Of a stretch of 64,000 bases of DNA, positions 22,200 to 57,142 are shown piece after piece (the stretch's first letter is position 1; each line of letters begins with the position of its first letter). Source of the DNA: Marsupella aquatica (Eukaryota > Plantae > Marchantiophyta); NCBI GenBank assembly GCA_973895155.1, contig OZ316894.1, positions 6,222,134 through 6,286,133 on the forward strand, given 5' to 3'. A model generated the notes under the pieces. It saw only the letters and a list, made by a program, of their open reading frames with translations, was not told the DNA's origin and searched no databases. The translations under genes were made by a program, and so were the position numbers.

Positions 22200-23570
22200 T
22201 GTCACGTCATCGGCTACGGCCTTAACTCAGACTTCAGCTTAGACGGGCACATCCCTCGTAAATCTAAGGGTTCGGGCAGGAAGGGAAGCACGTAATGCAC
22301 CTTATTCTCGTAAACTAGCGCTAAGTGCGCATACTCCTAAATACAGACACCTCCTAGGTATGGTTTGTGTTCCGCTGCCAGAACGTACCTTAGTCGATAG
22401 CAGGATCGACCCCGGCTTAAGGACTTCTAAGCCTTCGTGCTGTCCGCCTTCGATCCGGATTCGATGATACAGGTCCTCAACCCGTGCTCGCAACCACTTA
22501 CCCGCAGGCTGCACCCTGTGCACGTCTCGGGTAGTGCGTTTGGCCTGGCGCTGCCACCCATATACGAGAAACCCACACACATACACGCGCACATGCATAC
22601 AATCTCGATTTACACGAAGGAAAATGATGGGAAAGGATTTTACTACAAAGGGAACATATGCGTACACTTAGTTGACCCGACAGCCCCGGAATGAACAGGT
22701 TCAAGGCCGAGGGTGCACACTACAACGGAGCCCGGCTCCGCACTCGCCCGGCAAGCTTAGTCCTACCTCCTCCCCTTGGTACTCTTTCATTCCCAGAGGT
22801 CGGGACTCCCCGCACATACCGCGGACGCCCAACTTTGCAACTAAAAACCCCCCCCTCTCTCTACCGAGGGGTGCACTAAATACTAAGGGCCGAGGGATGG
22901 GGTGTCCTCTCGCCGAAGATTCACTGACTACGGTCCTAACTAAGCTGACAGTCAGGCCGGAAACGGCTGTGTCTTATTAGAAGATCCTAATCTATGCAGG
23001 CTGGACAACACGGCAGCGATGTTGTACCTAAGGCAGGTGCCTGTCCCAAGAGCCTGACTAAGCTAGTCCTAATCCTACTCTATTCCTACTCCGCCGCTAA
23101 TGCCTGGCACGCTTGCCAGAGCCACCTGAATGGGAGCGGCCATCCCGCTACCTTCGAAGCCTGTCATTGTCCGCCTTGAGGAGCTGGACCTGGTCTAGCA
23201 GAGATTCGTTCTCTCGCCTCGTCGCGTCCGTCTCCTCTACTGCCTCCTGACAAGCCTCCTCCAGCTGCTGGGCGTCACTTGTCAGTTTACCCGCCAGCCG
23301 GTCCTGCTTCTCGGCCTCAGTTTGGAGCCGCGCCACCTCAGCCTGCAGCGTGGCTATCTCCGCAGTGTCCCGCTGGGCCCGTTCCTCGGCCTCCTCCAGG
23401 TCTTTCTGCCAGGTGACAGTTTGATTCTTCAAACTGTCAATCTGGTTCCGGAGTCGTGTAATCTTGGCTTCATTCCCAGCTTTGGCCTGTTCGGCTAGGA
23501 CGGTGTCTGGGGGAAAAATGTGGTTCTTGAGGAAGCACCGGGCCTATGGCTGCTAGTGTCAAGAGAGAAC

Positions 23571-23780
23571 TTAAGTTAAGATCATGATTACTATTCTAGA
23601 CTGGGTAGCAGACACCACAAGGAACGATTCCGTGGATGAAAGCACAACATCATAACCCTTTTCTCCATACCTACGGACTATTGCCTCCTTGGCAGCTACC
23701 TTGGGTCGAGTTACAAAACGAATATCTCCCAACGAGAAAGAAACGGGAGGCTCATCGGAGGGAGGTTTGTTGAGATCCAT
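23571..23780 (-). CDS. Small hypothetical ORF (69 aa) in an intronic insert
   Basis: ATG-initiated and 1 nt downstream of the stop of ORF 23782-24015. Confidence 0.3.
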   Translation of the reverse strand: MDLNKPPSDEPPVSFSLGDIRFVTRPKVAAKEAIVRRYGEKGYDVVLSSTESFLVVSATQSRIVIMILT

Positions 23781-23781
23781 C

Positions 23782-24015
23782 TCAATACAAGATAAAAATT
23801 GTGCAAGCCCAATCCTGCCCGTAAACTACATAAGGGTATACAATTGGCTCTATTGAATTTAATACCGCAGTTGCAAATGCTTCTCCAAAGTGAAAAGTCA
23901 TATGCTGGTGCATTATCTCTTTTTGGAGTACATGAATTCTAATAAGGAAAGGATTAGGGAGAGGAAGAATAGGTACTGGTCTGGGCATTATCGTACTATC
24001 AAATATTTCATCCAA
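23782..24015 (-). CDS. Small hypothetical ORF (77 aa) in an intronic insert
   Basis: ATG-initiated, abuts the next ORF, and lies downstream of TATAAA (minus strand, 24530-24535). Confidence 0.3.
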   Translation of the reverse strand: MDEIFDSTIMPRPVPILPLPNPFLIRIHVLQKEIMHQHMTFHFGEAFATAVLNSIEPIVYPYVVYGQDWACTIFILY

Positions 24016-24619
24016 CTAATTTTCATTCTAATGACAAGAGATAGAATCATTCAACAAAAAGATCATCCATTTCAAACAAATATCATGCATTGAGTTAACT
24101 CTAAGTATATACATACAGATGTTTATCTTAATAGGTTGATCTTCTTTTGAATGAAAATACTATCTGAAGGTCCAACTCATACAAAATACCTCTGGCCGAG
24201 CCGAAGCTCTAAGCAAGAGTGCATGAGTGGGTCTACTTCATAAGGATTTCACCCAAAAGGGAGCATATGATGTCAAGGCATTGTTGAGCACTTTCCAACT
24301 CTTTAGAACTTAATAACCATCTCCTATCAAATGACAACACTTTCTGAAGGTCCGACTCATACAAAATATCCCTGGCCGAGCCGAAGCTCTAAGCAAGAGT
24401 GCATGAGTGGGTCTACTTCATAAGGGTTATATTCATAGAAGAGATCATCAAGTCCAATGGATTTTTAAGACTTCATAACTTAGTTGATGAAAAATGGGGA
24501 GTGAGGGGAGAGAGCCCCTCTCCTCTTTATTTATAGTGCTCACACCTCAAGCACACGGATCAAGCATGGCACACGGATGGAAGCCATGTGTCACACATCC
24601 AAGGCAAGTAAGTGTGCTA

Positions 24620-24940
24620 GTACTGTAGTTACGTGAGTGGAGCAACTGTAGACAGTACACTATAGTATGCACACTATAGATCGTACACTATAGCATGCAT
24701 ACTGTAGATCATACACTGTAACATGCACACTGTAGATCGTACACTGTAGCATGCACACTGTAGATCGTACACTGTAGCATGCACACTGTAGATCGTACAC
24801 TGTAGCATGCACACTGTAGGTCTTGCACTATAGCATGCACATTGTAGATCGAACAATATAGCATGCATACTATAGACCGTGTACTGTAGCATGCACACTA
24901 TAGGTTGTGCACTGTAGCATGCACACTATAGACTGCATAT
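24620..24940. repeat. Minisatellite of 14-bp subunits (28-bp higher-order unit ACACTGTAGCATGC-ACACTGTAGATCGT)
   Basis: Directly visible, roughly 20 subunits. Confidence 0.95.
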
Positions 24941-26849
24941 GCGAGAATTTAAACTACTATCCTATACTACTAAGCTATACTTAGGAGGAACTTACTAAAC
25001 AAAGAATCCCCACGATAACGGTAAGAGCGTGCGCCTTTGCTAATAACTCATCGGTGGCTGCAACCTTGGGTCGTAGTTGCCGAAACTCAGCCTCTTGAGC
25101 CGCAACTTCATTCTTTAGGTACACGGACTCCACCCGGTACCGCTCTATCCTCTGAAGGGCCTCTGACTGGGCCCGACCTGCCTTTACTGTGGCAACCAAC
25201 TCCTGATTGAAGAAACAGGCTACCTTCCGGGCCATGAACTCCCCGGTATCCCGGGCAATTTGATGAGAGAAATCTCCCAGAAGCCCGTTCAGAAATGTAC
25301 CCGGTACGAAGAGTTCTGGGTGGTCCAGGTTGTACCTGTCCGAAGTTGGGCACGGGCAGACGTCCACACGCGCGGGGGCCGGGGCAGTGACGTCCAGCCC
25401 TGGGGACGTAACGTTGGAAGGGGCTGGAGCGTCCTCCTGTAGCAATGTCCGGTTCTCCGGAATAGCCACCGGTGGGTCTTTGGGAGAACCGGGCTCGGGT
25501 AAGACCTCCGCCGTACCGACTTCTGTACTTAGCCCGGCTTGTTGGGTCGCATCAACGGTTGCGACACCCGACCCATCTGGTACCTCCTCGGTTATGACTA
25601 CAGCTACTTGTGGAGGTGGGGTGGATGAAGCTGGCGTGTCCGCTGGACTTCGGGCCTCGGGCTGGGGCCGTCTCTCCAAGGCCGGGAAAACCCACCTAGC
25701 TAGGACCAGCTTTGTAACGTTGACACGGGGAAGGGTTCGTCGATCAAACCGGGCGTACCACTCAAGAATGATCTTGATGTGGCTAGCGAAATACGCCTTC
25801 CGCCAATGTACAGCGTCTTCCTTCGCCGCTCCATTTCTTCATGGAATTTCTTAGCGAAGTACGACGCCCACCTCCTAGGTCGATAGTTCTCGACCTGGAT
25901 AACCTGGGCGGCGGAGATCTCCCCCCGGGGTTCCATCATGTGGAGGGCGTACCTCTGGAACTCCAGTCGCTCAGCTATCTCGGGGATGAGGCAGGTTTTC
26001 ATCACGAACCCGTTGTCCACTGCTCCCTTTGAGGGAAAACTTGAAGATTGGTACTTGGCTCCCTTGCCCCCGGGAGCCCGTGATTCGACTCGATGATCAC
26101 CTTCGGGTAACCCGAACATCATCCTGAGCCATTCTTCCGTGAGGGACATACTCCCCGTAGCCGAGTATGTTAACGCGCGTCGTCATAATTCCTGACGAAC
26201 TCCGTCATGTCCTCCCCGTAGTACCTGCAAGTGTTCCAGGGGAGGGAGGCGAGGTGCTTGAATCCCTGAGTCTTCAGGTACACCGCATGCTTGGGATGGA
26301 GGATGTTTTTGTGAACGTTTTCCCCCATGCGGTGCATTGTCACCTTGGCCACGGCTACCGTGGCCAATGGTAACCCGGATGCAGTGGCGGATTCCTTCCT
26401 CTTCTTCCCCCGTGACTGGCTTGGGGAAGGTGACACCTCCCCATCCTCCCAATCAGGCCTGGGTAGTGCTACTGCCGTTAGTAACGGGCCCGGGTCGGCC
26501 ACGGTCACCATGTTGTCTGTCGGGGCCGCTCCTGGGGTCAGAGCAGGGGGTGGGGACGATATAGTATCGGCCCCCTGAGCGCTTGTTCCTTTGGGCCGCC
26601 TGGTCAAGGGTAGGGTAGCCTCGTCGTCATCGCTAAGATCCACAACGTTGATGACGGAGCGTACTTGTGCTGGCTGGGCGATTGGTGGTGGGGTTTGGCT
26701 AGGCTGCGGCTGAGGCTGAAGCTGAAGCTGAGCCTGAGGTTGTACGGGTACGGGTACGGGTACGGGTACAACTGAGTTGGTCATGTTGGTTGCTGGCCGA
26801 GTTCCTATGAAGCTCTGTAGGTGCTGGTAGAAGTTCTCCGGGGCCTAAC

Positions 26850-29800
26850 CTCCGTGACAGGAAACAGTAAATAGGAAAAATCATAACAGGAAAATTCAAG
26901 GAAGATAACAGGAGTTCTTGCGCTCACAACAAAAAAAATATTTCATTTTCAAGAGCCAAAAATATATTTTCTATGATATTCATGATCTAGGCTATCGCTT
27001 TTTGTCATAATGGGATAAGTTTACTAGCGTCGGGCGCTAGCCAAAATACAATGATACGTTTTCATATTAGTTGCAAGGGTTATAATTAGCAAATTACATC
27101 ACATGTTAGGCAAACAAAATGTGCATTGTTTATTGGAAAGTATGTAATTTGTATTTTGTCGGTGGATACTTAGCATTTTGGCAAGGGTTATCATTAACAC
27201 CCCCTCCCGACGCTAGTCAAAATACCATCATAGTTTTTACATAGTCACAAGATTTACAATTAACATACAACAAATTCCTATGTTTGTTGAACTCTTACAA
27301 AAATGCAATATACTTCTCCTATAAACCAAGTGTGTATTTCTTGCATTTGGCCAAATCTGATCCTCTTTAAATTCTAAGGGGGAGACTTAAAGTGTACATC
27401 ATCATCAAGATTATTGAAAGAGTGCTTACGTGAGGGACACAGTCTTGGCCAAAAAACTCCTCATTTGGAATTTTTTTTTATCTAATTCCTAATTAAATCA
27501 AACCTTCAATTATATAGGAAATCTCAAGTAATACATATTTTATATTTTTCAAGTTGTTGATTCTATATATGTGGGTTGTTGTTATTTTCATAAAAATAAT
27601 TTAGAATTACTTCTAAATTATTCTCATAAGAATGTGAGGTGCTTAAGAAAATGAGAAAAGTTTTAGGCTACAATAGGATTAGAGTTTGACACTCTCTAGC
27701 AACCCCAAAATATCTAGTATAGAACAAGGAAAATATGATAGTAATGCCATACTCTACTATACAAATTGGCGTAATTTGATGTGTTTAAAGGTCATGAAGC
27801 TCAAACTCTTGGATTAAATCTAGAAATAAATCCCATAATAACTCCAGATGCAAAAGAAATTGAGACAAATTGAATATATTTATATGATATAATCCCTAAT
27901 TTAGTACCTAATTGCTATCTCAATAGTCCTAAAATCTTGTGCAGAATGTATAATAGCCCTAGGCGCTATCATAAATCATATTTATTTGACGTATTGATTG
28001 ATAAAAGTATTAGGTGCTATCATCAAATGACACATTTATGTGTAGAAACATCCATCATTTTTTAAAGAAACTTTGGCACAAGAGTTAATTACAAGAAATA
28101 ATAAACATAAACCCATAAAACAAATTTAATAAAAAAGATAAAAAAGATAAAAAAAGATACAAATGTTACTAGCGTCGGGTGCTGGTAATATCTTACTTGG
28201 CTTGATCCCCTCTAAGAATGATATTATTTTAATAATTTTTCTACAACAAATTGAGCTAAAATTAGTATAAAACATTTAAAAATGTTACTAGCGCCGAGAG
28301 CTAGTAATATTCAAGTCACCAAGACACTCCAAAATGACACTATATGAGTGCATGTTTACAAAAGATAAGTAAGCAAAGAGTAACAAAAATGATAAAACAT
28401 TACTAGCGCCAAGAGCTAGTAATGTCACACCCACCTAGACCCTCCACAATGACACTATTTTGAGTGTCTTTATGGGAAAAAATTAAGCAAAAAAGGCTAT
28501 AAAAATAAATTAACATTACTAGCGCCCGGAGCTAGTAATGTCACACTCGCTTGGACCCTTTAAAATAACATCATATTGAGTGTATTTATGAATTTTTTTT
28601 ACAAAAATTGGGCTATAAAAATGAATTAACATTACTAGCGCCGGGAGCTAGTAATGTCACACTCGCTTGGACCCTTTAAAATAACATCATTTTGAGTGTA
28701 TTTATGAGAATTTTTTTAGAAAATTGGGCTATAAAAATAAATCAACATTACTAGCGCCGGGAGCTAGTAATGTCACACTCGCTTGGACCCTTTAAAATAA
28801 CATCATTTTGAGTGTATTTATGAGAAATATTTTAGAAAATTGGGCTATAAAAATAAATCAACATTACTAGCGTCGGGAGCTATTAATGTCACACTCGCTT
28901 GGACTCTTTAAAATAACATCATTTTGAGAGTATTTATGAGAAATTTTTAGAAAATTGGGCTCTAAAAATGAATTAACATTACTAGCGCCAGGCGCTAGTA
29001 ATGTCACACTCGCTTGGACCCTTTAAAATAACATCATATTGAGTGTATTTATGAGAAATTTTTAGAAAATTGGGCTATAAAAATGAATTAACATTACTAG
29101 CGTCGGGCGCTAGTAATGTCACACTCGCTTGGACCCTTTAAAATAACATCATATTGAGTGTATTTATGAGAAAATTTTACAAAAATTGGGCTATAAAAAT
29201 AAATTAACATTACTAGCGCCGGGAGCTAGTAATGTCACACTCACTTGGACCCTTTAAAATAACATCATATTGAGTGTATTTATGAGAATTTTTTTAGAAA
29301 ATTGGGCTATAAAAATAAATTAACATTACTAGCGCCAGGAGCTAGTAATGTCACACTCGCTTGGACCCTTTAAAATAACATCATATTGAGTGTATTTATG
29401 AGAATTTTTTTAGAAAATTGGGTTATAAAAATAAATTAACATTACTAGCGCCGGGAGCTAGTAATGTCACACTCGCTTGGACCCTTTAAAATAACATCAT
29501 ATTGAGTGTATTTATGAGAATTTTTTTAGAAAATTGGGCTATAAAAATAAATTAACATTACTAGCGCCGGGAGCTAGTAATGTCACACTTGCTTGGACCC
29601 TCCATAATAGCACCATTTTGAGAAATTTACAAGAGAAATTTTACGCAAAAAATGTAGAAAAACAAAGGAACATTACTAGCGCCAAAAGCTAGTAATGTGA
29701 CTTTGGCCCAAACCCTCTAGAAAAACATTTTTTTGAGTCTGTGAGCTTTAATTATTTATTGATATACCACCTATTTCACTAGTAGTATTACCGTTTTATC

Positions 29801-31132
29801 TCTTGTGTTTGCGATTGTTGTTAAATACACCAAAGGATATTTTGGAAGGTCATGCAATTTTGCAAGTAAGAAAGAAATATCTATGTAAATGAGACCTCAC
29901 CAAAGAGGACTCTTTGTTGGCGTTGAGTGCTACTATGGTAATATGAACAAAAATGACTATAGCCTGAAGGATATATTTTGATAAGCGCCAGGCGCTGCTA
30001 TAAATTTTGGTCAAAACCAATGGCTCTAATTATCAATTTATTATATTAGTTTGTGGTGCTACTATATTATATCATCATTTGTAACATTTTAATGGTTATA
30101 TTATCACTAATATTATCTAATGTCACGGCTGCTGACCTTGTTACTAGAAAAAAAGAACATAGCATCCTCTAATGGTCTAAGGCGGTTCAATCAAAATTTA
30201 CAATATGTCAAACTCTTTATCATTGGTTAGAGCATTCAAATGACCAGAGTGTATTGCATTTGATAGCAAGAGTATATCTTTTTGCTCACATCACTCTCCG
30301 TGAGGATGTTAACCTTTGGTCAATCCACACATTTACAATCTTCTCGGTAGTACTTTGGAAGATGCATGGAACCCTTGATATGATGTGCTCCTTTATCGAT
30401 AGTTTGTCACTACTAGACGTCCAAATCAAAGTATGATTCAATATAATTCAAGTTAGTTTGAGCATGACAATTAGGGTGTCTAAAGGGAATAAACTTTTGT
30501 CTTATAATCTTTATATAGTTTTGATGTCGTGCACGATAGGTTTGAGCGTGAATATTGGTATATACATAGATGAACTAACAGTTTCTTTGGTCATAATGTT
30601 ATATACAACAATCCTCTTGGCGGACCACCATATATGGAGTGTCTACGCTTAGCAAAGGAATGAAGACTCAATCAGCAAGACAATCTCATCTCCCGTCTCA
30701 TCTATAGGGGAAGAGCAAGTTCATTGATTATCCTTAGATGTCAATGGAGATGCACTAGAGTTGGCTTGCGCTAAATGAGGGATCAGCTTGAGAGAGCATA
30801 ACATTCCAGATCCAAACACTCAAGAATTGCAAATACTTACTTGGTTAGGATTTATATGTACTTCTATTGCTCTTGTGATGATTTTTGTTGCAAGCATTCT
30901 TGAGCTATTATCAAATGATGCCTTCATGTGTAGAAAATCTTTGGCGCTAGTAAAGATTTATGTCTATAATAATTGTATCTGTTACATATATTACAATTGC
31001 TCAGTTCAAATTGTAGTGTAATTTTGGTCCTTAAAGAGGGAATTTTCTTTTGGCATTGCGCACAAAACTCCTGTTATCTTTGACCATTTTTGCTGTTATG
31101 ATAATTCCTGTTTACTGTTTCCTGTCACGGGG
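26850..31132. mobile_element. Non-autonomous AT-rich TIR element (~4.3 kb, ~70-bp imperfect TIRs)
   Basis: Left CTCCGTGACAGGAAACAGTAAATAGGAA..TCATAACAG...AGATAACAGGAGTT matches the reverse complement of the right end, CCCCGTGACAGGAAACAGTAAACAGGAA..TCATAACAG...AGATAACAGGAGTT. It splits the LTR gene. The TSD is unclear (possibly AA). Confidence 0.85.
28160..29735. repeat. ~116-bp tandem array (~14 units), each with a 29-bp palindrome
   Basis: ACATTACTAGCG at 28513, 28629, 28745, 28861, 28976, 29091, 29207, 29323, 29439, 29555 and 29670, plus diverged units at ~28163, 28282 and 28397. Perfect palindrome ACATTACTAGCGCC-A-GGCGCTAGTAATGT at 28976-29004. Confidence 0.97.
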
Positions 31133-32033
31133 AAAAACCTCGTTCTCCGAAGCGAGGGCAGACGACCTTGTTGAACGGGTAGTGCTGGACTCGCTGTTGA
31201 TGATAGCCTGAACCTGAGCAGGGATGTGGTCGAAGTGATGTCGCTGCAAGTGGATCGTACCCGGGATATTGAAGACCTCGTCCGGAAGCCGAAGCAATGC
31301 TTCCCAGAACCCGATATATTTGTCTCCGTTGAAGAAGTACCCGGATACCTCTGCTGGTCGGTAAAGCTCGCTCTGAGACGGGTAGTCAAAGTTAAGGATG
31401 TAGTGGTGTCGTCCTGCTAGGCGGATGGCTCGCTCGTACTCGCGTTCGATTTTGTATCGGCGCGGGTTGGAGTGTTTCAACGAGTCGGCCAAGTGCCTTC
31501 CGGTAGATAGGAACTGCGTCCAGAATCGAATGGCCGAGCTGGAGAGGATCGTGTGCGACATTCAGAGGAGATAGTAGTGGCGAATTAGAGCGAACAAGAG
31601 AGATGGGGTCGAAGCTGGCGCGCGGACTGATGGACTGGTGCACTACAAAGGGTTGGCTCCCCTTTTATACCTTGAGGGCTTGTCGATCCCCCGACGTCTC
31701 CTCGGCGCCCATAGGCTGAATCGCTCACGCTTGTGGTGTGCTGGCCACTCCGCCGGTCTGAGTCAGCGCATGTCAATGGCCGCTTCCTTAAGTTTGTTAT
31801 ACGGACCCGAGGGAGGGGCCCCTCCACGCTCGTAACCCGGGTGTGCGAATAGCGACCAGCCGCCAGTCCGAACCTGAATTCCTCCTTATTGCCTAATGAT
31901 ATCCTATCCATAATAATTACCTAAATACTGTCGTTATGCTAATAATAGCGGTCTAAGACACTCCTAACACGCGTGCCAAGCGCAGTTAGACCGAATCACT
32001 CATTAACCGCCGTACCGGCGGCGTCACAGGAAT

Positions 32034-33586
32034 CAAGGGCAAAGCCTCCTAAGCAAAGGGGAACGACCATAGAGTCGGCTGAAATTGTTGTGAAAACTCC
32101 CATGGTCAAAGCCGTGGGGAAGAAGGCCCCAAACGTTGAGAAGCAGGCTGTCATCACCTCTCAAGCTGTCGTTCGCAAGCCCAAGAAAGCAAAGAAAAAT
32201 CAGGAAGCTGTTGAGATTGACGAGAACCCTAGTTCCGCGAAGCTAGTTGTCGACCGTGCTCGTCTGGAGACTGCAGAAAAAACATTGGAGTTGAATAAGT
32301 CTTGGTATTGTTTCGGGATATCCAGATTTTTTTCTGTCCCGGTTGAAAACATCCATCCCCCTCCTGCCAAGATGAATGAGAGACTCCTCAATGAGGAGCA
32401 TGTCAACCATCTTGCGCAACTGATGATGACAAATGCAGGGCAAGAACCTTTACCTGCAGATTTGGTTCCTTACAAGATGATCGACGGAGTACCGAGTTTA
32501 ATTGACCTTGCGGGAAAGGACATTGACACCAAGAAGCTTGCGGAATTCAAGTTCTTTGCCATCAGTGGTCAACATTCCACAATGGCCGCCAAGAAAATTA
32601 TCCGGAGTTCAAAGACCCAACCATCTCTCATGCAAACAGCCAATTTGCTCAAATATCGTCGAGCACGAATTCTCAAAGGGTCAACTCCGGTGAAAGTTCT
32701 TGTGGAAATTTCACACGCGAACAACCTTCAGGCGGAGGCACATCGGTTTTCATCTCCATTTATTGATCAAGTGAAACATGCAAGAATGCAATACAGTGAT
32801 ATGGGGCGACCAGCTCGTCCATTTCCATCGGTTCTCCATGAGAGTTGTGAATAAAATCCTTTCTACGCGAGAGTCGTGTAGTTTCCAGTATTTGGGGATT
32901 CGAAACTTTGAGCTGGCTAACTTTGAGTTGTTTGGTCTTTCCTCCTAGGAGTATGAAACACTTGCGAAAGTTATGTTAAAGGTGAATAGCATCAGCGAGT
33001 ACAATTGGATTTTGTTTGCTCCCGAGAAGCTCTACTCTTTATGGAGAGAGGTTTGCAATAATTGGCTCAAGGGTAATCTTTTGGATTCATCCGGACAAAT
33101 GACAGGAAAATCGAAAGAAGCAAAATAGTTGACAGGGACAACATTCCGGGTTTTTGAGGGTGCCGTAGAATCCGACATCTTGGAAATCCTCCACAAAGTG
33201 AATTTGGGGGAGGCGCTTTTGATGAAAAAAACATGCTTTGACTGATCTTCCCGCCATGTCAGAATTGGCAAGAAAAGCAAAGTATACGGAGAAACTTAAG
33301 GGGGCAATACTTCGATTCTATCGGGAGAAGTACGAAGGGGTTTTCTCGCAAGGATCAACTTGGGGTGATGTAGTTCAGCAATATAATTTCACTGATGAGG
33401 AATTGGATCGTTGTTGTGCAATGGTGGACACTGGATATTTCAAGAGCCTTGTGAAGGTGTCACTAAACACAGAGATGCCGGAGCCACTGAAAAATAGGTT
33501 GAGAAATATTCACCAAAAGAGGTTTGGCGGCCATCTCCGCGCAAGGATGGATCCTTACCGAGTTTTCTATACTGGAAATCTGCGCG
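32034..33586 (+). pseudogene. Accessory gene segment 2: ParB/Srx-like domain and helical region
   Basis: VPVENIHPP...NERLLNEEHVNHLAQLM...FAISGQHS (32561-32578) resembles the ParB/Srx (I/V)DG.HR motif. Predicted intron ~32846-32948, followed by an exon with one stop and a frameshift into ORF 33238. Cut by the CACTA element at 33587. Confidence 0.6.
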
Positions 33587-35843: not shown

Positions 35844-38800
35844 TGTGGTGCGTCCCATGGCTCCCTAAACCCAAGAAACCCCCCAGCTCAAGCCGATTCC
35901 CGCAGGTTTTGCGCTTGGCGAGGCCATTTCCGCGGCTTAGCGGCATGGGACGCTGCTAACCTTCTACTACTACTATTAACATTTTACACACATATACTGG
36001 ACAGATCCTTCATCGGGTCATGAGATACGTAGCCGGCCTAATCTAGGCCTTCCCCTGTCTTCCCCTCCGTCTTGTTAGGTATGTTTGGATTCCGCCGCCG
36101 GAATGATCCCCAATAGGCTTGGTTAAGCCGCTAAGACCTCTCTCAGCTCGACACATCCAACTCTCACTCCCCTGCTTACTTTCCTTCCTTTTGGTTGATG
36201 TGGGCACTCTTCACACAAGTTAATGCGACACACAAATAGCAAAATGACTCATTCTGACTGAGTCATACCATGCACTTGCCATACAAACAGTACATCTCAT
36301 ACACAAGCTCTGCGAACTAAGCCGTGAGGCCAACTCTATTCAGCTCTTAGGCATGAGGAAACATGAATATACACAAGGGTCACTGTATGACTAACCGAGA
36401 GCTTCTCGTACTACTTGATCCCAGCCCGGCTGGTGCAAACTAAAAACTTGCTAAAGAAGAGGCCCTGAGCTCCCCGCTGCCCAGGTACTTATCCTGGTAG
36501 TGGATCCGCCATTCTTTGCATCGTAAGCCTAATCTACTTAACAGTAATCTACTTGCCCGAATCTACCTATGTACAACAAGGCAGGAGCACAAGTGTTGCT
36601 CCTACCAGTGGGACCGCAATCCCACTAAGCTAAGTGTCAGGGCCGCTCCTGGTCCTGATCCTAATCCTAAACTTGGAGATCCGCGCCCGCCCTGCCCACT
36701 CACGCCTCCTCCCTCTACGTCCGCCCTCCCTAAAAGGAACGGCGCCCTTGCACCGTCACGACACTGGTGGTGGATCCTTAATGGACGCCCCCAACGCTTC
36801 CTCCTCAGCCACTGCTGTAGGCTCATTCCTTGACAGATTACCTGCCCTTGACTGAGTCAACTCTCCATCGGCCTGACTGGGTCCACCATCAGCGTCGGCA
36901 TCGGCTCGGGAATCGGTTACGGCCTCAGCCTCGGCTACGGTCTCCCCGGCCTGCTCAAGAGGCGGATCTGGAATACCGGCCTCATTACTGAGTAGTTCGG
37001 CTTGGGCCGCACCACCCCCACCTGTGATGATAGCGGGATCTATTGCCGTATTCATGCCGGGGGATGGTGCTGGTTCTACCTCTTTGGTCACCACGGCTTG
37101 TGGAGTCGGATTACTCTTTGACCCAGAAGGTTTCCACTTTTTCTTCTTTTCTGGTTCGGCAGCTGGTCCCTTCCCCTTCCCACTTACTTCCGGCACTGGT
37201 GCAGTTGGCGCGGCTTTTTCTTCGGCCAGTACCACTCCTGGTAACTTGGTTGCCCCAATTGGAGTTGGGCCTGATGAAGACAAGCACTTAAATACTGCGG
37301 CTTGTTTCTTCAGCCGCTCCGTTTGGTTGTCGGCCCGCCGCTGGAGGTTCTCCATCTTCCTCGTGATTTCCTCCAACTCCTCTTGGGTCTCATCCAGGTC
37401 CTTGCGTGCCTCCACTAGTTCCTTCTGGGCTTCCTCCCGTTCTTGTTTCAAGGTAGTCCTCTCCTCCCGGGTTGCTCTTAGCTCCTTGTCGAGCTCTGCA
37501 ATGATGACAGACTCCATCTGGTTCATCTTGGCGTAAGTCTGTTCGAGCATCTCGTCCTTCTCCCTTAGGTCGGCCTTGAAGCTGGCCGTCAGGGACGCAA
37601 GCTCCTGCTGCAGCGCCATAATCCCTTGATAGGATTTCCCTAACTCGGCCTCCTTCTGCTCAAGGGCTCCGCGGATTTTCTCGAGCTCCCCCTTCAACGC
37701 CCATTCCTTTCTTTGGGTCTCCGCCATGGCCCGGCTGTTGGCTGTTATGTGGGCCTCCTCTGTATTCTTCAGCTCTTGCTTCCACTTCTCCCTCTCTTTG
37801 ATCGTGTCGGCCAACTCTCCCTGCGTCTGAGTCAGTTTATCCTTGATATTCTGATTATCAGCCTGCGCGGTGTCCAACTGCCCCTGCATGATGTTAAGCT
37901 CATGTCGTTTAATCCGCAGTTCATCTTGGGCTTTCTTGGCCGCCCTTAGATCTTCAATCTCGGCTTCCATCCTCCTAAGCCGCCGAATGACCTCGTCCTT
38001 CTTGCTTCTCTCTAAAGCCACCGCTTCTTCTAATTGGTGCTTCTCCAACTGCTCCCTATGGAAAAAGGGTCCTACCTCCAACTCCTCTCCAAAGATGCCG
38101 AGCGCAAGTTCCCCACACATCTCACCATACTCCATGGCTCTATTCTTAGCGTAGGTGGAGTAAGTAGAAGTGATCGGCATCGCCCATCGCGGCCTCTGCT
38201 CCCAAGCCGTCCTGCGGATCTCTTCAATCGTGGCTAGAGGTTTGCTTCCTTTTTCGGCTAGCCGCCTGATGTCCTCCGGCCAATCTCCTCCTGGTAAATC
38301 CTTTTCCCTAGCCAGGGCTGCCTCCTCTTCCTGCCTGATTCGCTCCTGAAATTCCTGCACCGTCTGTTTTATGCCGTCGAAGCTCGGGGGAGCAACATCT
38401 GGTGGGGGAGACTCAGGGCTACTCTGCTGGTTGGGGTCCCCTCGCACTACCCTTGGAAGTGTGGGGACAAACCGGCCACAGGTCCTTACTCCTGGAACGT
38501 GATGGTCCGACCCATAGCCGGAATTATCATGGCTGCAGTCCTCCACTGCCTCCTCTACCTCTTGGACGTCCGGCTTCTCCCTCTCCTCTTCGTCGGTAGG
38601 AGCTTCAGGAAATTCTGCCTCAGATTCGGAGCTTGAGGTTCCCACGTACATTCGAACACCTGGCTTGGATTCCGGCCTGATTCTCTCCTTGTCTCCAGCA
38701 AAGGGGTTTTCTCTTGTGAGCCGGTGTAGGCCTACCTCTGTAGTAGTGTCCTGCATTGTTGCCGTTGCCGTTGTTGTTGCCGATGCCGATTTCTTTTCTT

Positions 38801-40506
38801 TCTCCAGTAGTTTCAGTAGACTCTGCATGCCTGGTTGCTGCATCGGCAAGTCCTCCTTCCTGGGCCTAAACACCTGCTCGATCGTAGGGCTAACAGGTGG
38901 TTGAGGCTTCTCAGCCAACGGCCTTGGCGTTGGAGCTTCCTCGGGTGCCCTTACCTGCAGGGGAAGTACTGGGGCAAAAGTCTGACCTCTGGCATACCGG
39001 CACAACAGCGGCATGTGATAGCCAAGCCGCGACACGCTCCCCATGCCGATTACCTGCTGCTCCTCCTTTAAGATCTTCTTCAATTGGTTGAGGAGGTACC
39101 CGTTGTAGTCCCGGCTTGGGTCTGGTCTTTCTGCCAGATAGACCTGTGCCTTGCCGATCTCTGCCCTCGGCAAGTTACAATGCATGGTCACCCACAAGAA
39201 GTCGATCATCTCTCCTATGTGCGGGTTGGTGCAGGTATTCCGGAAGAAGCCATTCTTCGTTGATGGCCCAGGGAACGACCGGAACTCCTTGTCAGGCAAG
39301 GTCTTCCTGGTATCAACTTTGGTCTTATTGCCTATCGGCAAGCCAAACACTTCGGCAATTACCTTGGGAGTAAGATAGAAATCCTTCCCATATATCCTCG
39401 TGCAATTGGTCTCGGGTTCCCATGACCCCACGAATTCTAATAGGTCTGACTCCGGTACCTCCGGCTTCAGCCATGGTAATCTTACAAAGGCCTCTAAGCC
39501 GGATCCGGCCATGAAGCCTTGGTACTTCTTGGTCTGCATGGCCGTGAAGCATGCATCCTCCTCCCGTGCAAAATGTAGTTGCACCTCCACCGGTAGGGTT
39601 GCCGCCCAGCCCTTCCAGGTGTCATCCCTGGTTGGAATGGCCTTGATGGGATCGACCTCCTCCTCTTCGGCTTCTCCCTACCTCCTGCTCTGCTGCTCGG
39701 CTGGCTTCTTTGGTGCCGCCGACCTCGTTCTTTTTGCCGGGGTGGCTTCATCGTTGATGGCTCCCTTCCTCTTCATCTCTGCTGCCGTGGAGGTTTCTCC
39801 TAGCACCGTTGCCTGGGTCCACCTTTCCGTGCTACCCTTTAATTCCCAGTGTATGTCGTTGCAGTTCTTGATGGCCTCTCGGATGCCGACGACGCTGTCT
39901 TTGCAAAACAGAAGATCGTCGAGTTGATTGGAAGTAGGCGTCCACAGGAACTCGCCCTTGATGAGTTTGCCTCCTAAGAAAGCCGTCTTCTGCAGCTCCC
40001 ACAATCGAGCGAGCTCCTGCCATTCTCGAGCTGCCCTTTCTGATTCCTCGTCCTCATAAGTCTTGATGTACTCAGTTGCCCGTTCGAACAGGCATCCCCA
40101 GAAATGTGCCGCTTGATTGACGTTGCTCATACCCTCCTTAGGTCGATCGTCGGTATCTACTCTCTCCCCGAGTGCTTGCCTAAGCAGCTGACAGTAGTTG
40201 GCCTCCCATAGTCGTCTGCCTAGTTCGTGCTCGCAAATGAGCCACCATCTCCTGCAAGCGCTCCTTACCCCTCTCCTCTACCGGTCCTTCTTCCCGTTGA
40301 TCCTTCCTAGCCGCCGACGCTTAACGCGCCCTAACCCTAATCGAGTTTTCACCCTCAGCGTCCTTACCTCCGGCCTCGGCCCGGGTTCCATGGTTGCCCC
40401 TAATGGTTTATATTTTCCTTGTTTTGTCCCTATACTAAGGTGTTCCTAGGGTGCCTTCCTGGTTTACCCACTTAACTGGCCGAGTGATTCCTGTCTAGGC
40501 ATCACA
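35844..40506 (-). mobile_element. Giant solo LTR 2 (4663 bp, TG...CA, TSD AGCCC)
   Basis: AGCCC|TGTGGTGC at 35839-35851 and GCATCACA|AGCCC at 40499-40511. No gag, pol or paired LTR was seen. Confidence 0.85.
36756..39590 (-). CDS. LTR-borne 944-aa protein (plant-transposon-protein-like N-domain plus long coiled coil), probably extending to ~40130 or beyond through one stop
   Basis: Long open ORF with FVRLPW...LLEFVGSWE...LTPKVIAEVFGLPIG...KNGF...CTNP and an E/K/Q-rich heptad region. Upstream ORF 39678-40130 is in the same frame. Confidence 0.75.
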   Translation of the reverse strand: MEVQLHFAREEDACFTAMQTKKYQGFMAGSGLEAFVRLPWLKPEVPESDLLEFVGSWEPETNCTRIYGKDFYLTPKVIAEVFGLPIGNKTKVDTRKTLPDKEFRSFPGPSTKNGFFRNTCTNPHIGEMIDFLWVTMHCNLPRAEIGKAQVYLAERPDPSRDYNGYLLNQLKKILKEEQQVIGMGSVSRLGYHMPLLCRYARGQTFAPVLPLQVRAPEEAPTPRPLAEKPQPPVSPTIEQVFRPRKEDLPMQQPGMQSLLKLLEKEKKSASATTTATATMQDTTTEVGLHRLTRENPFAGDKERIRPESKPGVRMYVGTSSSESEAEFPEAPTDEEEREKPDVQEVEEAVEDCSHDNSGYGSDHHVPGVRTCGRFVPTLPRVVRGDPNQQSSPESPPPDVAPPSFDGIKQTVQEFQERIRQEEEAALAREKDLPGGDWPEDIRRLAEKGSKPLATIEEIRRTAWEQRPRWAMPITSTYSTYAKNRAMEYGEMCGELALGIFGEELEVGPFFHREQLEKHQLEEAVALERSKKDEVIRRLRRMEAEIEDLRAAKKAQDELRIKRHELNIMQGQLDTAQADNQNIKDKLTQTQGELADTIKEREKWKQELKNTEEAHITANSRAMAETQRKEWALKGELEKIRGALEQKEAELGKSYQGIMALQQELASLTASFKADLREKDEMLEQTYAKMNQMESVIIAELDKELRATREERTTLKQEREEAQKELVEARKDLDETQEELEEITRKMENLQRRADNQTERLKKQAAVFKCLSSSGPTPIGATKLPGVVLAEEKAAPTAPVPEVSGKGKGPAAEPEKKKKWKPSGSKSNPTPQAVVTKEVEPAPSPGMNTAIDPAIITGGGGAAQAELLSNEAGIPDPPLEQAGETVAEAEAVTDSRADADADGGPSQADGELTQSRAGNLSRNEPTAVAEEEALGASIKDPPPVS

Positions 40507-40938
40507 AGCCCCAACATGCTCAACAACTTTTGTGTGAGGCTATTCTAAGGTGAGAGTCTTACACTTCCACACATTTCAATTCTAGAGTGCGAATTTGTAT
40601 ATGTAATCTATAGTGGCTGGAATAACAAATTCCAAAAGCCAATTCTTTCCAGAGCTGGTGATTTAGGATGTTTAAGTTAAGCAAGCCACCTGAGCCCCCT
40701 TTCTGCGGACAGTGAAGCTGCTGATTGAAGCGGATCTCTTGGCTGAACAGGGGACCTTGCGCCAAGGAGGGGGGAGTCACTTCAGAGAGATGGACGGACT
40801 CTGCAACTGAGCCCGTCTACTTTTCTTCCAAAAAACTAGACTTTGTCGGAGTTGCAAACATCAATCAATCGACTACAAAGGCGTTGCAGCGCATCCAAGT
40901 CATTGGTGAGTTTCTCTAACATAGATCACAACTTTGAT

Positions 40939-46200: not shown

Positions 46201-46425
46201 GACTCATAGGTATGTGTGGGTACAGGCATTTTGTGACCGGATCATGCTAAATTCCATGGCAAAATGGTCCCCGATGACCATGTGGTAGTGTTGTTGACTA
46301 TAGTGATTGTATCTGATTGTAATTTGCCATTTCCGAATAGAGATGATGATCCACCTCAGGAAATAATTGCAGATGTAGTAGGATCTCTTGTGCTCTGGCC
46401 ATCAGAGTGTGTTAGTCTGCAGTGA
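43292..46425 (+). pseudogene. CACTA TnpA-like multi-exon gene (Ptta/En/Spm-type and Tnp1-type domains), degraded
   Basis: ORF 43761-44636 contains DQWTRLIKGFMSEAGQSKSELMSNARGKVKHLSQAGRGSY. The 3' exon reads CVGTG...FHGKMVP...VVV......LPFPNRDDDPPQEIIADVVGSLVLWP* with internal stops. Confidence 0.75.
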
Positions 46426-47194
46426 CTGAATGCAAGTGTAGATAGAACCATGTGAATTGTGTTACATTTTGACATTGCCTTGGAAAGATCCAAGAAATAT
46501 CTGTACCAATTTTTCCATTTGGTAAAGAGGATGACGGATTCGTTATCATTATGTGTGACATGTATATATTTCTGAATTCTGTGTGTATGTATGAAACAAG
46601 TGATTGATGTCAAACTATGGCTGTAAGGTGACCATTGGATGATACTAGAATCTGTTTTGTATCATTTCAATATTAGTGTGTATGGTAGTTTCATGCTTTG
46701 TGACCTTATAGAGTGAGTTCATTTACAGTACACAAAAAAACATGAATGGAATGTCTTATTTGTGCACATTCCAAGTAGTATAGTGGGGTCTTCATCACTC
46801 ATTTCGAGTTGACATGAAAGACTTATACATACCCCACTAAGTATCTCCTTTAGTCGTTTTATAGACCCACAAAGTAAACTTAAAGACTACCCTCCATAAC
46901 CTGTTTAGTCCTTCCCAACAACTCACCATCGCACCCCTTAAAAGACTGAAAATGACTCACCAAAGCTACCCAAACAAAGACTACAATAGACTGAAAATCC
47001 AGTCTGTTAAACGACTCGTGAACCAGTTCTATAAAGGACTCAGTTGATTATAGTAACAAAACATACGACTCACAGTCCTATAAAGGACTGGAGTCCTATA
47101 AAGGACTGGAGTCCTTCCCAGTCATTTCCGAGTCCTATACGGTACTACATAGTCGTTTAATGGGGTCTAAATACCCCCCGGTTTCTACTAGTTG

Positions 47195-48174
47195 CTCGCG
47201 TCTGCTGATCCTCCTTTTGATTCGGCTAGCTGCAAGGAGTCAATATTGGCATCTCTAGCCATTGTTGATTTGACCCATACTGGAAAACCGGTTTGGATGT
47301 AGTCCAAAATCTTGAACTTCTTGAAGATCGTCGTGAATATCCCAACAAATGATCTGGTAACAGTTGTTTTTGTTCGTCCTGGTATTATTCTTGCAAGAAT
47401 AATTGAAGCTGTTCGAGATCTCCCGGAGAACTATAATGCGCACCTTGAATATGGTTCGTTCATGAGGAGTTCTATGGTTAATGCTCCTTCGCAACACATG
47501 AGAGGCGATGCGGACATGGTTCTTTTCCTTGGCGTCTCCCAAGATTGGGTTCTTGACTGGGAAAAGCATTTCAAGGATTTTACCGGTCACTTTGTGTTGG
47601 AGGAGTCCGACCTCGAGGAGACAATCAAGCCAGTCGAGAGGATTATTCCGATATTTCGAAGGATGATATGCAGGAGAAAAAAGGGACACATTGATCTCAC
47701 GACTTGAAGGCCTTGTTCCTTTCAAATTGACGACTGGACGGCCATTCACATTGAATATTAAGCCCAGTCGCATCCTACAGAGTTTTATTCATGCATTTTC
47801 TTCGAGGGAGGAAATTGTCCTGGATTTTTTCACAGGAGGGCAGGTACTGAAGAATGCATTGATGCTTGAGCGTGAGTGTTTTTCATTCTGCTCTGACCGT
47901 GAGGATGTCTCTGACCTCACGGCTTATGCAGAGAATCTTAAATTGTTAGTTCCGGTTGCACAGTTTGCCAAATCATTGTGGAAACCTCCTGGCCTTGAAG
48001 GGAGTTCGACTCAGAACTCCAATGCTAGTGGAGCAAAAGAGGGCCAGCATTATCAGATTGCCGGTACAGTTTTACATTACGCCGGGGTGGAAGCGGAGGA
48101 AAAGTTTCTAAGTTCCATTGGGGAGATGAGTATTGGTCCATCAGTCGTTCCAATTGCAAGTCGCGAAGGATTTC
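47195..48174 (+). pseudogene. Accessory gene segment 3: amino-DNA-methyltransferase-like (beta-class motif order), degraded
   Basis: DPPF at 47207-47218 (motif IV-like). KPSRILQSFIHAFSSREEIVLDFFTGG at 47760-47840 resembles KP..L...LI...S..GD.VLDPF.GSG (motifs X and I). One stop (~47300) and one frameshift (~47700). Confidence 0.55.
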
Positions 48175-51100
48175 TGTCGCACCCCTACCCTGGGCCTTAA
48201 ATCCGGGTTAGTGTCGTGGTGCGACCTCGACCACCAGTAGGGGTGAGGGTTCGGGCAAGGAGGTGTGTAGTGACCTTCAATAGCCCTAAGTCGGGCTAAG
48301 CTGCTATACTTACTGGTATAACACTCGCATAATTCGTACTTGTCATAGGTATATTTATTTTCCACCGCTGGAATTTTCCCTCAGTTAGTGACGCGGACTA
48401 ACTCCCGACTTGGGGCTTTTCAAGCCATCGACGTGATAGGACCTTGTGACATGCAATGAGTGGCAATCCCTACCATTAGTCCGCACCCGGTACGTCCCTT
48501 AAAATGGCGCCTTTGCCCGGACAAAGCATACACACAACACCAGTTACTCTCAGAGACATTAAGGGGAAAAGACTACATTTACTTAGCGAAGCATCAGTTT
48601 ACATGGTTGACTCGACTTCAAAGGGGGTCAGCAGGCCCAACGGCAGTCGATGCCCAGTCTCTACGAGGCCCTGCCTCACACTTGCCCAGCAAGCTCGACT
48701 CTGGCTCTCACTCCTTGGTACGCTCTGACCCTACTCAGGCCGGGACTCCCCGTGCCTCGCCTTTCTTCTGCTGAGATAACTAAGCCTTCTCCCCCTTCCC
48801 ATCGCGGAAGGGGAAGCCTAAATACTACCATAGCGGAAGAGAACCGGAGGATACTACCTTCCGGGGTACTACCTACTGACTAACTAACTGCTGACTACCG
48901 GTCGCGCTGTACTGACCGGTTGACCGTCGACTACGAGTGTGCCAACCGGAATGGCAGCGGCCAAGCCTATTGACAAACTCTAGTCCGTTGATGGACTCAA
49001 TCCTACGTTGGCTGATCCTAACTGACCGGCCCTAATTCTTCCTACTGCCGCTAATCAGTGCCTAATGACAGTCATTCTGTCGTTACGCCTAACTAAAAGA
49101 TGCCGCTGACTTAACCGCCTCGCGCGGCGCCTGCTTCTGCCCTTCGCTAACTACCCCTTTCGTGTGTGTAGTGGTTGGACCAGGGCTGGTCCCCTTGTCG
49201 GGGCGAGACCTCGAGCCGCCTTGATCAGAGGTGGGCCCAGGTTTTCCCCGCTGGAGGACGAGCAGGGTGACGCGGTCCTGCAAAGCCTTGTTGTCCCGTA
49301 ATGCTTCCTCCGCCTCGTTTGCAGCTTCGTCGGCTTCAGTCTGGAGCCGCGCCACCTCCAAGTTGAGCTGGTCGATGGCGTCGCGATGGACCTGGTCCTG
49401 CGCTAGCAATTTATCTCGTTCGGCAGAGAGACTAGCCACCTGTTGTGCTGCCTGCAGGAATTGTTTGTTGAGGTCGGTCAGGCTGGTAACCCGAGCCAAA
49501 GATTCTGAGCGTAATTGAAGCACGGTGTCGTCCAGCTTCTTGAGTTTGGCCTGCGCTCCGCTTAACTCTTGGGTTAGTCCGTCCCTCTGTTCAACAGTGC
49601 GGACTAAATCCTCACGGCGGGTCGTTGCCTCCTCCTCGAGGTGCTCTACCAGCATCTGGAGACGCCCGATCTCATTCCCCTTCGCCATGAGTTCTTCTTC
49701 CAAGCGGCTGACGATCCGTGGTTGGTGCTCTAACATGAAGAAGGATGGTTGAAAGTACGCCGAGACTTGTTGTCCGATGTATGTCGCCAACTCCCCAGAC
49801 ATAGTCTGGCTAAACTTCTGGACCAGGTCGTAGGCCATGGTCCCCGGGGCTACTTGGTAGTCCTCCATCCTCTCGGGTACCGGTGGTTCCTCGGCAGGGG
49901 CAATGAGCTCCTCCGTAGTCAGCGCTGGGGAGGGGAAGGTTTCTTCAGGTGGTGGAGGGATTGGGGGTGGTTGTACTGCAGGTAGCGGAGGCTCAACGGA
50001 AGGAGGCGGTGGAATTTCCACAGGGGGCGGTTGCAAAGTATTAGTCGGGGCTTCCGGCTCGGGGTTTGTCCGAGGGACAGTAGTTCGCGTAGTCGGGGTT
50101 GCCTCCTCTGGGGCGGGGGTGACATTACCCGGGGCTGAAGTGGCCGTATTCTTTCCTCTGGCCTCCCGCCGTGCCTTGTACCAGGCGAGGATAATGGCGA
50201 TATGACTCCCCAAGTAAGTCTTCCCTCCAATAGCCATACCACCCTGAGCCCGCTTCAGCTCCCCCGAGAATCTTCGGTAGAAGAATTGGGCCCAGTTTCA
50301 TCGTTTGTACTGTTCCACCTGCACTATCGTGCAGAGGGAAATCTCGGATCATGGCTCAATCATGTGTAGGGTAGTCCGTATGAAGTTAAGCCGCTCCATA
50401 CAGGTTAAGTTGGTGCACGCCCCCTGCTTGTATCCGTTGTCCGTCTTACCCTCGGGTTTGAAGTGCCGCGGCGTATACTCCTTATCCCAAATTCGGATTT
50501 CCACCGGCACCGGCCCGGTTGGTAGGCCGAAAATTTGCGTTAACCGATGCTCCGTGAGTGATAAGGTCTGCCCCGAAACCTTGGTGGTTGACGCATCAGT
50601 GTCGAAATTGGAGATGAACTCACAAATCTCCTTCGGGCCGGCGGCACACGGCCTCCATAGTAAGTGGGCGAACCGCTCCAACTGATGCTCCTTGAGATAG
50701 TCCGCATGTTCGAGTTTCTTGATCGCGATCTAGACTACCTCGGGGACGCGGATTACCTGTAATAAGTTGGACTTCGGGTTATCCGGGGGCCGTCAGGTCT
50801 GGTTGGTCGGGGGGTTTGCCGGGGCAGGCGCAGGCGCGGCGTCGGTCCGTGTTGATTCGGGGGCCATCGTAGTCCTTGACCGCTTACGAGGACGCTATTC
50901 GAGTTGCAGACTAGCTCGCTCGGAACCCAAAGAACACTCCGCGTTGATTACTAGACGGACTTGGGACTGGTTCGGCGGTACTCCGGTGGTCATCGGTTGA
51001 GGCGCTGGGGTAGCCATATCCCAGTTGAAGGCGTTGGAGCTTTCCCCGAGGAACGTGAGATTACGCGCCGCTTCCCATTGTCTGCTGATGTCTTCTTGGC

Positions 51101-52012
51101 GCTTTTCGGCTGCGATCTGCTGGTCTAGGTACCCCAGAATCTTGTCGAACTCCGCTTGAGTAAGCCGCTGGTTGCCCTTCAGCTTAAAGAACTTAGCTGG
51201 AACCTCAAGAATCGCCTCTGCTACCGATCTAAGCCCTTCCTTGCTGAGATATAGTTCGGTGATGTAGTCTCGCAGCTCGTTATAGCTAGAATCCCTGGTG
51301 ATGGCTGTCCTTTCGCAATTAACCAGTGCTACCTTGGTTACCAGCTTTGCGTACCTTCGTTCGTAAGCGGCTTTCTAGGGGCAAGAGTACCAGTAAGTTT
51401 CGGAGAACTTAGCACCTACCTCGCCAAACAAGGTCCAAAATCCCAAGGCGATGAGGGTCATACTAACCTCGTAGTCCGGTTTGTTGCGTCCACGTTCCCA
51501 CCTGGCTGGTCCTTTTACGCGGAGGCCTCGCTCGTCCTGACTAAATCTTGCCACATTCCGCTCTTCTCCCTCGATAATTTCCTCGTAAAGGTCGACTGGA
51601 TTCAATCAAAAAGGCGAGCGGATGGCAGCGTCCGTGAATTCCAAAAAGGTAAACGTGAGCGAATGGCCCGCAATGCCATCGGCTCCTCTCTTATGGGGGT
51701 GCCCGGACGAGCCCGAGCGTGAGAAGGTCAGGCCGTTTGGTCATTGATAACGAGCTGAAGTCGGCGTCTCGGTCCAAGCGTGATTCTTCTAACTGATTTT
51801 TACTCCGCTGCCGCCACCGTACCTCGGTCATGCGTAATAATCCCTTTCCTGAACTCGTAATTATTCGGTTATCTTAACCTACTCCTAATCTAATCATAAT
51901 GGCAACTTGACGGCTATACGTGCTATTCTACGCTATGGCTACGGTCCTAATGACCGTATAAGTCCTAATCTACGACCTGGGTTCGGTCAAGTGACACGTT
52001 ACCCGTGTCACA
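48175..52012 (-). mobile_element. Giant solo LTR 3 (3838 bp, TG...CA, TSD ATTTC)
   Basis: ATTTC|TGTCGCAC at 48170-48182 and GTGTCACA|ATTTC at 52005-52017. Removing it restores the reading frame REGF|PLVMAE. Confidence 0.88.
49089..51605 (-). pseudogene. Degraded LTR-borne gene homologous to those in solo LTRs 1 and 2
   Basis: Fragments 51375-51605, 50349-50681 (FAHLLW...EICEFISNFD...SLTEHRLTQIFGLPTG...DNGY...CT...ERLNF) and 49089-50237 (Pro-rich region plus coiled coil). Confidence 0.72.
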
Positions 52013-56727: not shown

Positions 56728-57142
56728 TCCCTGATGTTTCCACTAATTATGTTGTGACAACTTTGATTGTATGAAATTATGCATGTGTGTTCAATAGTCA
56801 ATATGAGTTCTAAGATTCTAATAGAATTATCTTGTCTATCCTGTTTTCATGTAAGACTTGTATGCTCATGCTTTGATTTTTGGGATGTAACGAGTCAACT
56901 TTCACAAGTCTCAATTTGTCGGTTATGGTCATGGTTCTAGTCCTATGTGCAGACCGCATGTGACTCAGGTCGAGTCAAAATTTTGACCACTTGGTCAAAG
57001 AATACTTCAGTATGCGGTCGTTAACTAGACTACTGAGTCATTTTGGGTCATTAAGTTATGACCGTTGTATATGTCAACACCTTGCAATGGGGCTTAACTC
57101 TCTACTAGAATTAACTTCACCACTTATGCCCCTTCTTATCGT

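Follow-up and report, generated by a model that had tools for sequence, protein, structure and literature searches.

The window analysed here is a stretch of 64,000 nucleotides from contig OZ316894.1 of the Marsupella aquatica assembly GCA_973895155.1, and our subject is three repeat units within it (E1, E2, and E3), each carrying a minus-strand gene of about 870–1,170 codons with a common domain of ~200 amino acids. A decayed Gypsy retrotransposon (G) in the same window gives these units their orientation (Table 1). Based on the borders of the units, the layout of related elements, and a predicted protein fold, E1–E3 are probably solo long terminal repeats (LTRs) of three diverged families in an Athila-like, non-chromovirus Gypsy lineage of bryophytes, with an extra sense gene inside the LTR that is predicted to be VANC/MAIN-like.

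Table 1. Coordinates of the units, their genes, and the neighbouring Gypsy element in the window
Feature	Position	Strand	Remarks
E1, likely solo LTR	22200..32028	-	Target-site duplication GGAAT; ~4.1 kb without two nested insertions
E2, likely solo LTR, 4,663 bp	35844..40506	-	Target-site duplication AGCCC; high-copy; empty site
E3, likely solo LTR, 3,838 bp	48175..52012	-	Target-site duplication ATTTC; high-copy; empty site
E1 gene, N-terminal piece	31131..31561	-	Precedes the inverted-repeat-bounded insertion
E1 gene, middle piece	25030..26851	-	Frameshifted; conserved domain ~26334-25796
E1 gene, C-terminal coiled-coil piece	23148..23510	-	
E2 gene frame, 1,173 codons	36756..40277	-	First ATG 40130; one premature stop 39678-39680
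E2 conserved ~200-aa domain	38961..39560	-	Transposase_32/ATHILA-like; predicted VANC-like fold
E3 gene frame, 883 codons	49089..51740	-	7 in-frame stops; domain 50747-50169; start uncertain
3' hairpin motif in E1	22370..22383	-	
3' hairpin motif in E2	36090..36103	-	
3' hairpin motif in E3	48360..48373	-	
G, 3,068-bp 3' LTR of decayed Gypsy	57072..60139	-	TG..CA; orients the units; no gene remnant detected
Polypurine tract of G	60143..60152	-	Lineage's motif before the tract; directly after integrase stop
Decayed Gypsy integrase (rve, H2C2)	60178..61502	-	Nearest named relative Calypogeia fissa (liverwort), 79%
Insertion in E1 bounded by terminal inverted repeats, ~4.3 kb	26852..31130	.	65-nt arms, 85% complementary; 116-bp tandem array; no long open reading frame
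Second, AT-rich insertion in E1, ~1.5 kb	23510..25030	.	28-bp array; ends approximate

Borders, Dispersal, and Orientation of the Units

All three units begin with TG, end with CA, and are flanked by perfect 5-bp target-site duplications, and their terminal inverted repeats (TIRs) are imperfect, with 6/8, 7/8, and 6/8 positions matching in E1, E2, and E3, respectively. An earlier sequence-only reading of the window had proposed these borders and duplications, together with a lack of gag/pol and of paired repeats, and all of this was verified: the repeat search found no long direct repeat pairing the ends of E1, E2, or E3, and in a Pfam scan of 24 window open reading frames (ORFs), those of the three units were free of gag and pol domains. 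As expected of solo LTRs, E1–E3 contain no internal gag-pol, primer-binding site (PBS), polypurine tract (PPT), or paired repeats; the only copy in the window of the motif that precedes the PPT in this lineage belongs to G. The proposed coordinates of E1 hold, and its 9.8-kb length is not the native size, which is ~4.1 kb because the unit contains two inserts. The TIR-bounded insert is a non-coding element whose 116-bp array comprises about 11 palindrome-bearing units. The AT-rich insert sits in the coiled-coil region of the gene; one of its ends has GTAAGT nearby, the opposite end has a pyrimidine tract and AG, and the insert might be spliced out.

Depth, joints, and variants were followed for E2 and E3 in contigs of public sequencing runs. 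E2 was present, whole or in part, in 13 of the 15 public runs listed, none of which is recorded as RNA. Along the whole unit, E2 had hundreds-fold and E3 tens- to hundreds-fold the depth of the unique flanks in runs X1 and X2, with a sharp drop at the borders; the tool cautions that a depth ratio does not equal a copy number. Empty sites were represented by the joints 35838>40507 for E2 (runs X2 and X4) and 48169>52013 for E3 (X1 and X2), each with 5 ambiguous bases. The units are mobile dispersed repeats, as seen in the copy number and empty sites of E2 and E3. Ends of both E2 and E3 were also joined into other E2 copies (X1 and X2), which represents nesting among the families.

The strand on which the units are read follows from a hairpin motif with exactly four occurrences in the window. 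Each is on the minus strand, 180–260 nt from the 3' end of E1, E2, E3, or G, and an AT-rich box accompanies it in all four LTRs. Shuffled sequences contained the motif 0.32 times on average, a contrast that is inflated since the pattern was built from the same four sites. The sequence-only reading had noted a 15-mer common to E3 (48359) and the Gypsy LTR (57239); the match is there, and its limitation to two units is not, since the motif occurs in all four. Because the 3' motif is common with the oriented LTR of G, the genes in E1–E3 are sense.

The Extra Gene and Its Predicted Fold

Besides the ~200-amino-acid domain, each gene has a low-complexity middle part and ends in a coiled coil; the domain is recognized between all pairs of units by tblastx at expectation values (E) of 5.7e-29 (E1 with E3), 1.5e-11 (E2 with E3), and 1.1e-8 (E1 with E2). 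A homologous gene encoding a protein of ~1,000 amino acids had been claimed for every unit; the homology stands, and all three copies in the window are broken. The premature stop of E2 is private, with another base in nearly all of the depth at the site in four runs; the gene of the E2 family is therefore one long frame. Among in-frame differences in the best-supported rows (40 of 1,680 for E2 and 40 of 499 for E3), 18/37 are synonymous in the E2 frame vs. 11.0 expected (P 0.010) and 7/11 in the E3 frame vs. 3.4 expected (P 0.026). These counts lend modest support to purifying selection on the gene. The TATAAA boxes reported on the minus strand at 31664–31669 (E1) and 40407–40412 (E2) were confirmed and lie ahead of the gene, 360 nt and ~95 nt from the start, respectively; taken alone they are weak evidence, as several more lie inside the E1 inserts and E3 has none before its gene.

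The domain was compared with the ORFs that follow pol in related Gypsy elements, and alignment by hhalign over 167 columns gave 72% (E 3.3e-5). A profile made from 146 database proteins, with no window sequence among them, matches E2 at 4.6e-8, E3 at 1.2e-3, and E1 at 3.6, those proteins having been collected through a profile that included window rows (1,461 matches at E≤0.001). Among the relatives, the two domain groups A4 and A5 do not match each other directly (probability 0.7%) and are linked only through the window alignment and the joint profile. The homology of the window genes to the post-pol ORFs of the relatives thus appears weak but consistent.

A comparison with Transposase_32, ATHILA, and the plant mobile domain had been suggested, and it brought out a weak likeness that stays below the Pfam cut-offs in sequence and is led by VANC in structure. 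None of the window proteins matched Transposase_32 (PF20167) or ATHILA (PF03078) in Pfam; among the relatives 2/40 matched, with 14–24 bits against a cut-off of 45 (L014, E 1e-4). Language-model neighbours belong to the Transposase_32 and ATHILA clusters (Atlas 0.83 for E2 and 0.90–0.91 for L002). Word-indexed protein searches with the N-terminal part of E2 and with alignment A2 gave no matches, locus searches with the E2 protein found nothing in metagenome and viral contigs, the integrase alignment found no loci in viral contigs, and the sequence search of the PDB returned a repeat-protein artefact alone.

A first fold predicted from 4 rows was poor (predicted local distance difference test, pLDDT, 41.7), and the AlphaFold model from a 15-row alignment reached pLDDT 83.5 and a predicted TM-score (pTM) of 0.80. 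In Foldseek against the PDB, DNA-bound VANC21 ranks first (E 0.54, prob 0.44, TMq 0.48). By VIA-align it is the sole chain with Z≥5 among 48,161, at Z 6.7 over 190/200 residues with a root-mean-square deviation of 4.3, where the next chain has Z 2.4 and a Z below 8 can reflect a common arrangement. A viral fold library held no match to the domain model at E≤0.001. On this modeling, the core of the gene is predicted to fold like VANC.

Related Gypsy Elements and the Position of the Gene

To place the gene relative to the retroviral landmarks, we turned to 80 metagenome loci of related Gypsies retrieved by an integrase search. The joint domain profile matches 29/80 at E≤0.05 (11 of these built the profile), and the domain in such loci is a sense ORF after pol. 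PPT position was surveyed in 26 loci, domain-bearing L029, L040, and L042 being left out. In 7/26 a PPT and TG directly follow the pol stop, ahead of the gene (L001, L002, L004, L005, L006, L008, and L056); in 5/26 the gene is internal and the PPT comes after it (L003, L014, L017, L066, and L070); in the other 14/26 the order is ambiguous. Four of the internal type have the PPT motif 22–110 nt past the gene stop, and no second PPT motif was found past the gene in the 218 nt of L001, 876 nt of L004, and 1,106 nt of L005 that follow it. The LTR start after pol agrees with the PBS-side LTR end at 9/9 bases in L002 and 11/12 in L006; therefore, the TG after pol is a true LTR start. The 5' edge of U3, the unique 3' region of the LTR, is fixed by the PPT priming plus-strand synthesis, and where the PPT after pol primes, the downstream gene would be part of U3.

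In the integrase tree, built without REXdb reference lineages, the seven loci with PPT before the gene form one starred clade with L059, and a larger starred clade of 14 rows contains those seven together with the window's integrase. The domain lists of P0002 and P0109 fit the order reverse transcriptase–RNase H–integrase without a chromodomain or archaeal RNase H. A TATA-like box precedes the gene in L001 and L006, and L006 has a TATA-like box ~150 nt before its PBS-side end. At the 3' end of E2 in run X6, a two-contig loose end fits the PBS of the lineage five bases after the CA, with a likelihood ratio of 526 that 51/20,000 random pairs reach; this test assumes alphabetical tie-breaking, as deduced from base composition.

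Several of these loci have features of their own. In L017 (765-9740), a single ORF of 2,992 codons carries gag-pol and, in frame behind it, the domain; a PPT and a short LTR come next. A second PPT-like tract lies directly after pol in L003 (3715-3790) and L028 (7203), with the working PPT further down; the L003 copy has no TG after it, and the working PPT there follows the gene. The tract after pol in L003 and L028 is possibly a central PPT. The pentamer CCGGA is about ten-fold or more enriched through the whole of L001, L002, L004, L005, and L006, gag and pol included (mostly 14–45 per kb in those five vs. ~0 in L003 and 1.4 for the window); its reading as a target array of the VANC type was rejected, since it is equally dense in gag and pol.

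The proposal of a solo LTR with a sense gene draws support from the PPT-TG ahead of the gene in relatives, the PBS-side match, the 3' motif common with G, and the X6 loose end. We are confident that the gene lies inside a true LTR, and its placement in U3 is fairly likely. If the gene instead lay in R or U5, inside the LTR but downstream of the main start, the 5' LTR would be the copy it is translated from, before gag, in the manner of the 5' extra ORFs known from Ogre or Retrosat2. The TATA-like boxes ahead of the gene in E1, E2, L001, and L006 suit such an arrangement; however, the hairpin and AT-rich box near the 3' end of the four window LTRs suit a 3' main promoter, as does the TATA-like box near the PBS-side end of L006, and homologs 3' of pol in sister branches would lead to U3 by a shift of the PPT. 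We consider an R or U5 location unlikely.

The sequence-only reading had also raised single-unit elements mobilised by an integrase in trans, which would be non-autonomous and never paired. Three such units within 30 kb, no full element seen, and a similar depth along each unit are compatible with that idea, which is nonetheless very unlikely given the PBS-compatible loose end, the PPT-before, PBS-after arrangement of the same layout in relatives, and the motif common with the true 3' LTR of G. Reverse transcription requires both a PBS and a PPT, and the units themselves have neither. The same reading had named short LTRs with an internal ORF as the outcome that would make E1–E3 deletion derivatives. 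That layout is present in the lineage in the five internal-type loci listed above and is not that of the PPT-before-gene clade. Derivation of E1–E3 by internal deletion from such short-LTR elements is extremely unlikely, considering that they have no terminal direct repeats, that the pre-PPT motif is confined to G, that their tails run 912–948 nt after the gene to the final CA with no PPT-TG restart, and that the high copy number extends across the whole unit.

Against the interpretation of E1–E3 as solo LTRs with a VANC-like U3 gene weigh several observations. No full element with two gene-bearing LTRs was found in the contigs examined, no PPT or gag-pol was seen beside the families of E1–E3 themselves, and the remaining loose ends at E2 ends (X5, 4 contigs each, and X8) either led to other flanks or could not be decoded. 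In the domain tree, the E domains form a branch of their own (93/92, unstarred), apart from the in-LTR clade. L002 ends within the gene and L006 at the gene start, which leaves room for a duplicated PPT plus attachment site (att) upstream of an internal gene. The 3-kb LTR of G yielded no gene remnant, and the idea that G carries one was rejected. TATA-like boxes stand ahead of the gene as well as close to the 3' end, which leaves the extent of U3 ambiguous. None of the three window copies of the gene is intact (one stop in E2, seven in E3, E1 frameshifted and split), and the synonymous test took in the best-supported rows only. As to the fold, the VANC21 match is weak by its Foldseek E value and its identity of 10–12%. 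Unlike VANC targets, the non-coding DNA of E1–E3 shows no enriched repeated target motif: its top 6-mer was equalled by 24, 47, and 9 of 60 shuffles, respectively.

Around the units, the window holds large DNA-transposon-like tracts (14573-17047 on the minus strand, 20573-35800, 43761-47800, and 52867-53670), in which E1–E3 sit. Pfam identifies in their ORFs DUF7869 transposase-like, weak Transposase_24, DNA methylase-like (N6_N4_Mtase), and NIF phosphatase-like domains. The segment 43100-47450 is itself a high-depth repeat. On the plus strand at 3834-5970 lie exons of a host phosphoinositide phospholipase C gene (Pfam).

A Candidate Anti-silencing Gene in a Plant LTR

We propose a route by which the gene could have entered the LTR. 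It would first have been an internal ORF after pol, as in L003, L014, and L017; plus-strand priming may then have shifted to a PPT directly after pol, so that everything downstream became U3 and the gene was copied into both LTRs. Recombination between the long LTRs would have left the gene and a candidate promoter in solo LTRs. The gene could be driven by the TATA-like box ahead of it in E1, E2, L001, and L006, while the hairpin conserved near the 3' end may, together with the AT-rich box, be the main promoter. The protein might oligomerise through its coiled coil and bind DNA of its family as VANC does, acting as a VANC/MAIN-like DNA-binding factor that counters silencing of its own family.

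Such an anti-silencing role, suggested by the modeled fold, is the likeliest role for the product, and we hold it tentatively. It is somewhat unlikely that, with the element structure unchanged, the product instead works in integration targeting, chromatin tethering, or particle scaffolding. This possibility finds support in L017, where the in-frame position behind the integrase suits a targeting module, and in the lack of VANC-type target arrays in E1–E3, and a common fold proves no function. On the other hand, the characterised relatives of this fold, VANC and MAIN/MAIL1, act on silencing (PMC13547354; bioRxiv 2024.09.27.615353), and the LTR placement would favour action in trans from the gene's own promoter. 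The complete proposal, in which a VANC-fold gene moved to U3 by a PPT shift gives two copies per element and turns hundreds of solo LTRs into autonomous trans de-silencing cassettes, is speculative and rather improbable as a whole.

The nearest precedents share single aspects of this arrangement. VANC, a factor of eudicot DNA transposons that binds motifs repeated in tandem, acts on its own family by sequence-specific removal of silencing marks (PMC5735166). It is structurally related to MAIN/MAIL1 (PMC13547354; bioRxiv 2024.09.27.615353), and for VANC as well as the Athila domain the prediction is a pentamer held by coiled coils (PMC13547354). VANC21 of the Mutator-like VANDAL21 and the plant mobile domain of MAIN/MAIL1 resemble our gene as the top structural match and in having a globular domain, a variable region, and a coiled coil. 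They differ in that VANC21 belongs to a DNA transposon, whereas here a gene in a retrotransposon LTR, with low identity and no motif arrays, is known from sequence and a model.

The sag gene of mouse mammary tumour virus lies mostly in U3, with internal LTR promoters, and 490/527 sag contigs are solo LTRs (PMC4667437). It is similar as a gene in the LTR that persists in solo LTRs, but its protein is unrelated and its host element is an animal retrovirus; here a much larger gene occupies a 4–5 kb LTR of a plant Gypsy, in a putative U3 position. In plant non-chromovirus Gypsies, extra 3' sense ORFs are described as internal, between pol and the 3' LTR, and the LTRs reach ~5 kb with no gene in them described in the portions cited (PMC7264820; PMC6317226). 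The Athila "env-like"/ATHILA ORF-1 (PF03078) and Transposase_32 (PF20167) ORFs are likewise sense ORFs after pol with weak family matches; Athila-type ORFs are internal, however, whereas in the related elements here the PPT precedes the gene. Other plant Gypsies with extra ORFs are Retrosat2/RIRE3, with ORF0 upstream of gag-pol and, in Retrosat2, LTRs >3.2 kb and many solo LTRs (PMC3485330), and Retand, with antisense, internal TRP28 ORFs and LTRs of 315–1,194 bp (PMC11963269); both differ from a sense gene within the LTR. The literature searched, outside whose scope some relevant papers and supplements fell, contained no LTR-internal gene in a plant retrotransposon.

LTRs of plants are regarded as non-coding, and published accounts place the extra ORFs of plant Gypsies in the internal region and assign them no known function (PMC7264820; PMC6317226). 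With a gene in the LTR, the formation of solo LTRs, the usual route by which the host disarms these elements, can leave that gene intact, and annotation pipelines would mistake such 4–5 kb units for host genes or for repeats of unknown kind. Comparative genomics can test the PPT-shift route through the sister layouts (gene internal, fused to pol, or in the LTR), and the predicted VANC/MAIN-like fold offers a testable hypothesis for the role of Athila-type extra ORFs. If true, the complete proposal would amount to the first anti-silencing system of its kind in an LTR retrotransposon and would provide a function for plant env-like ORFs.

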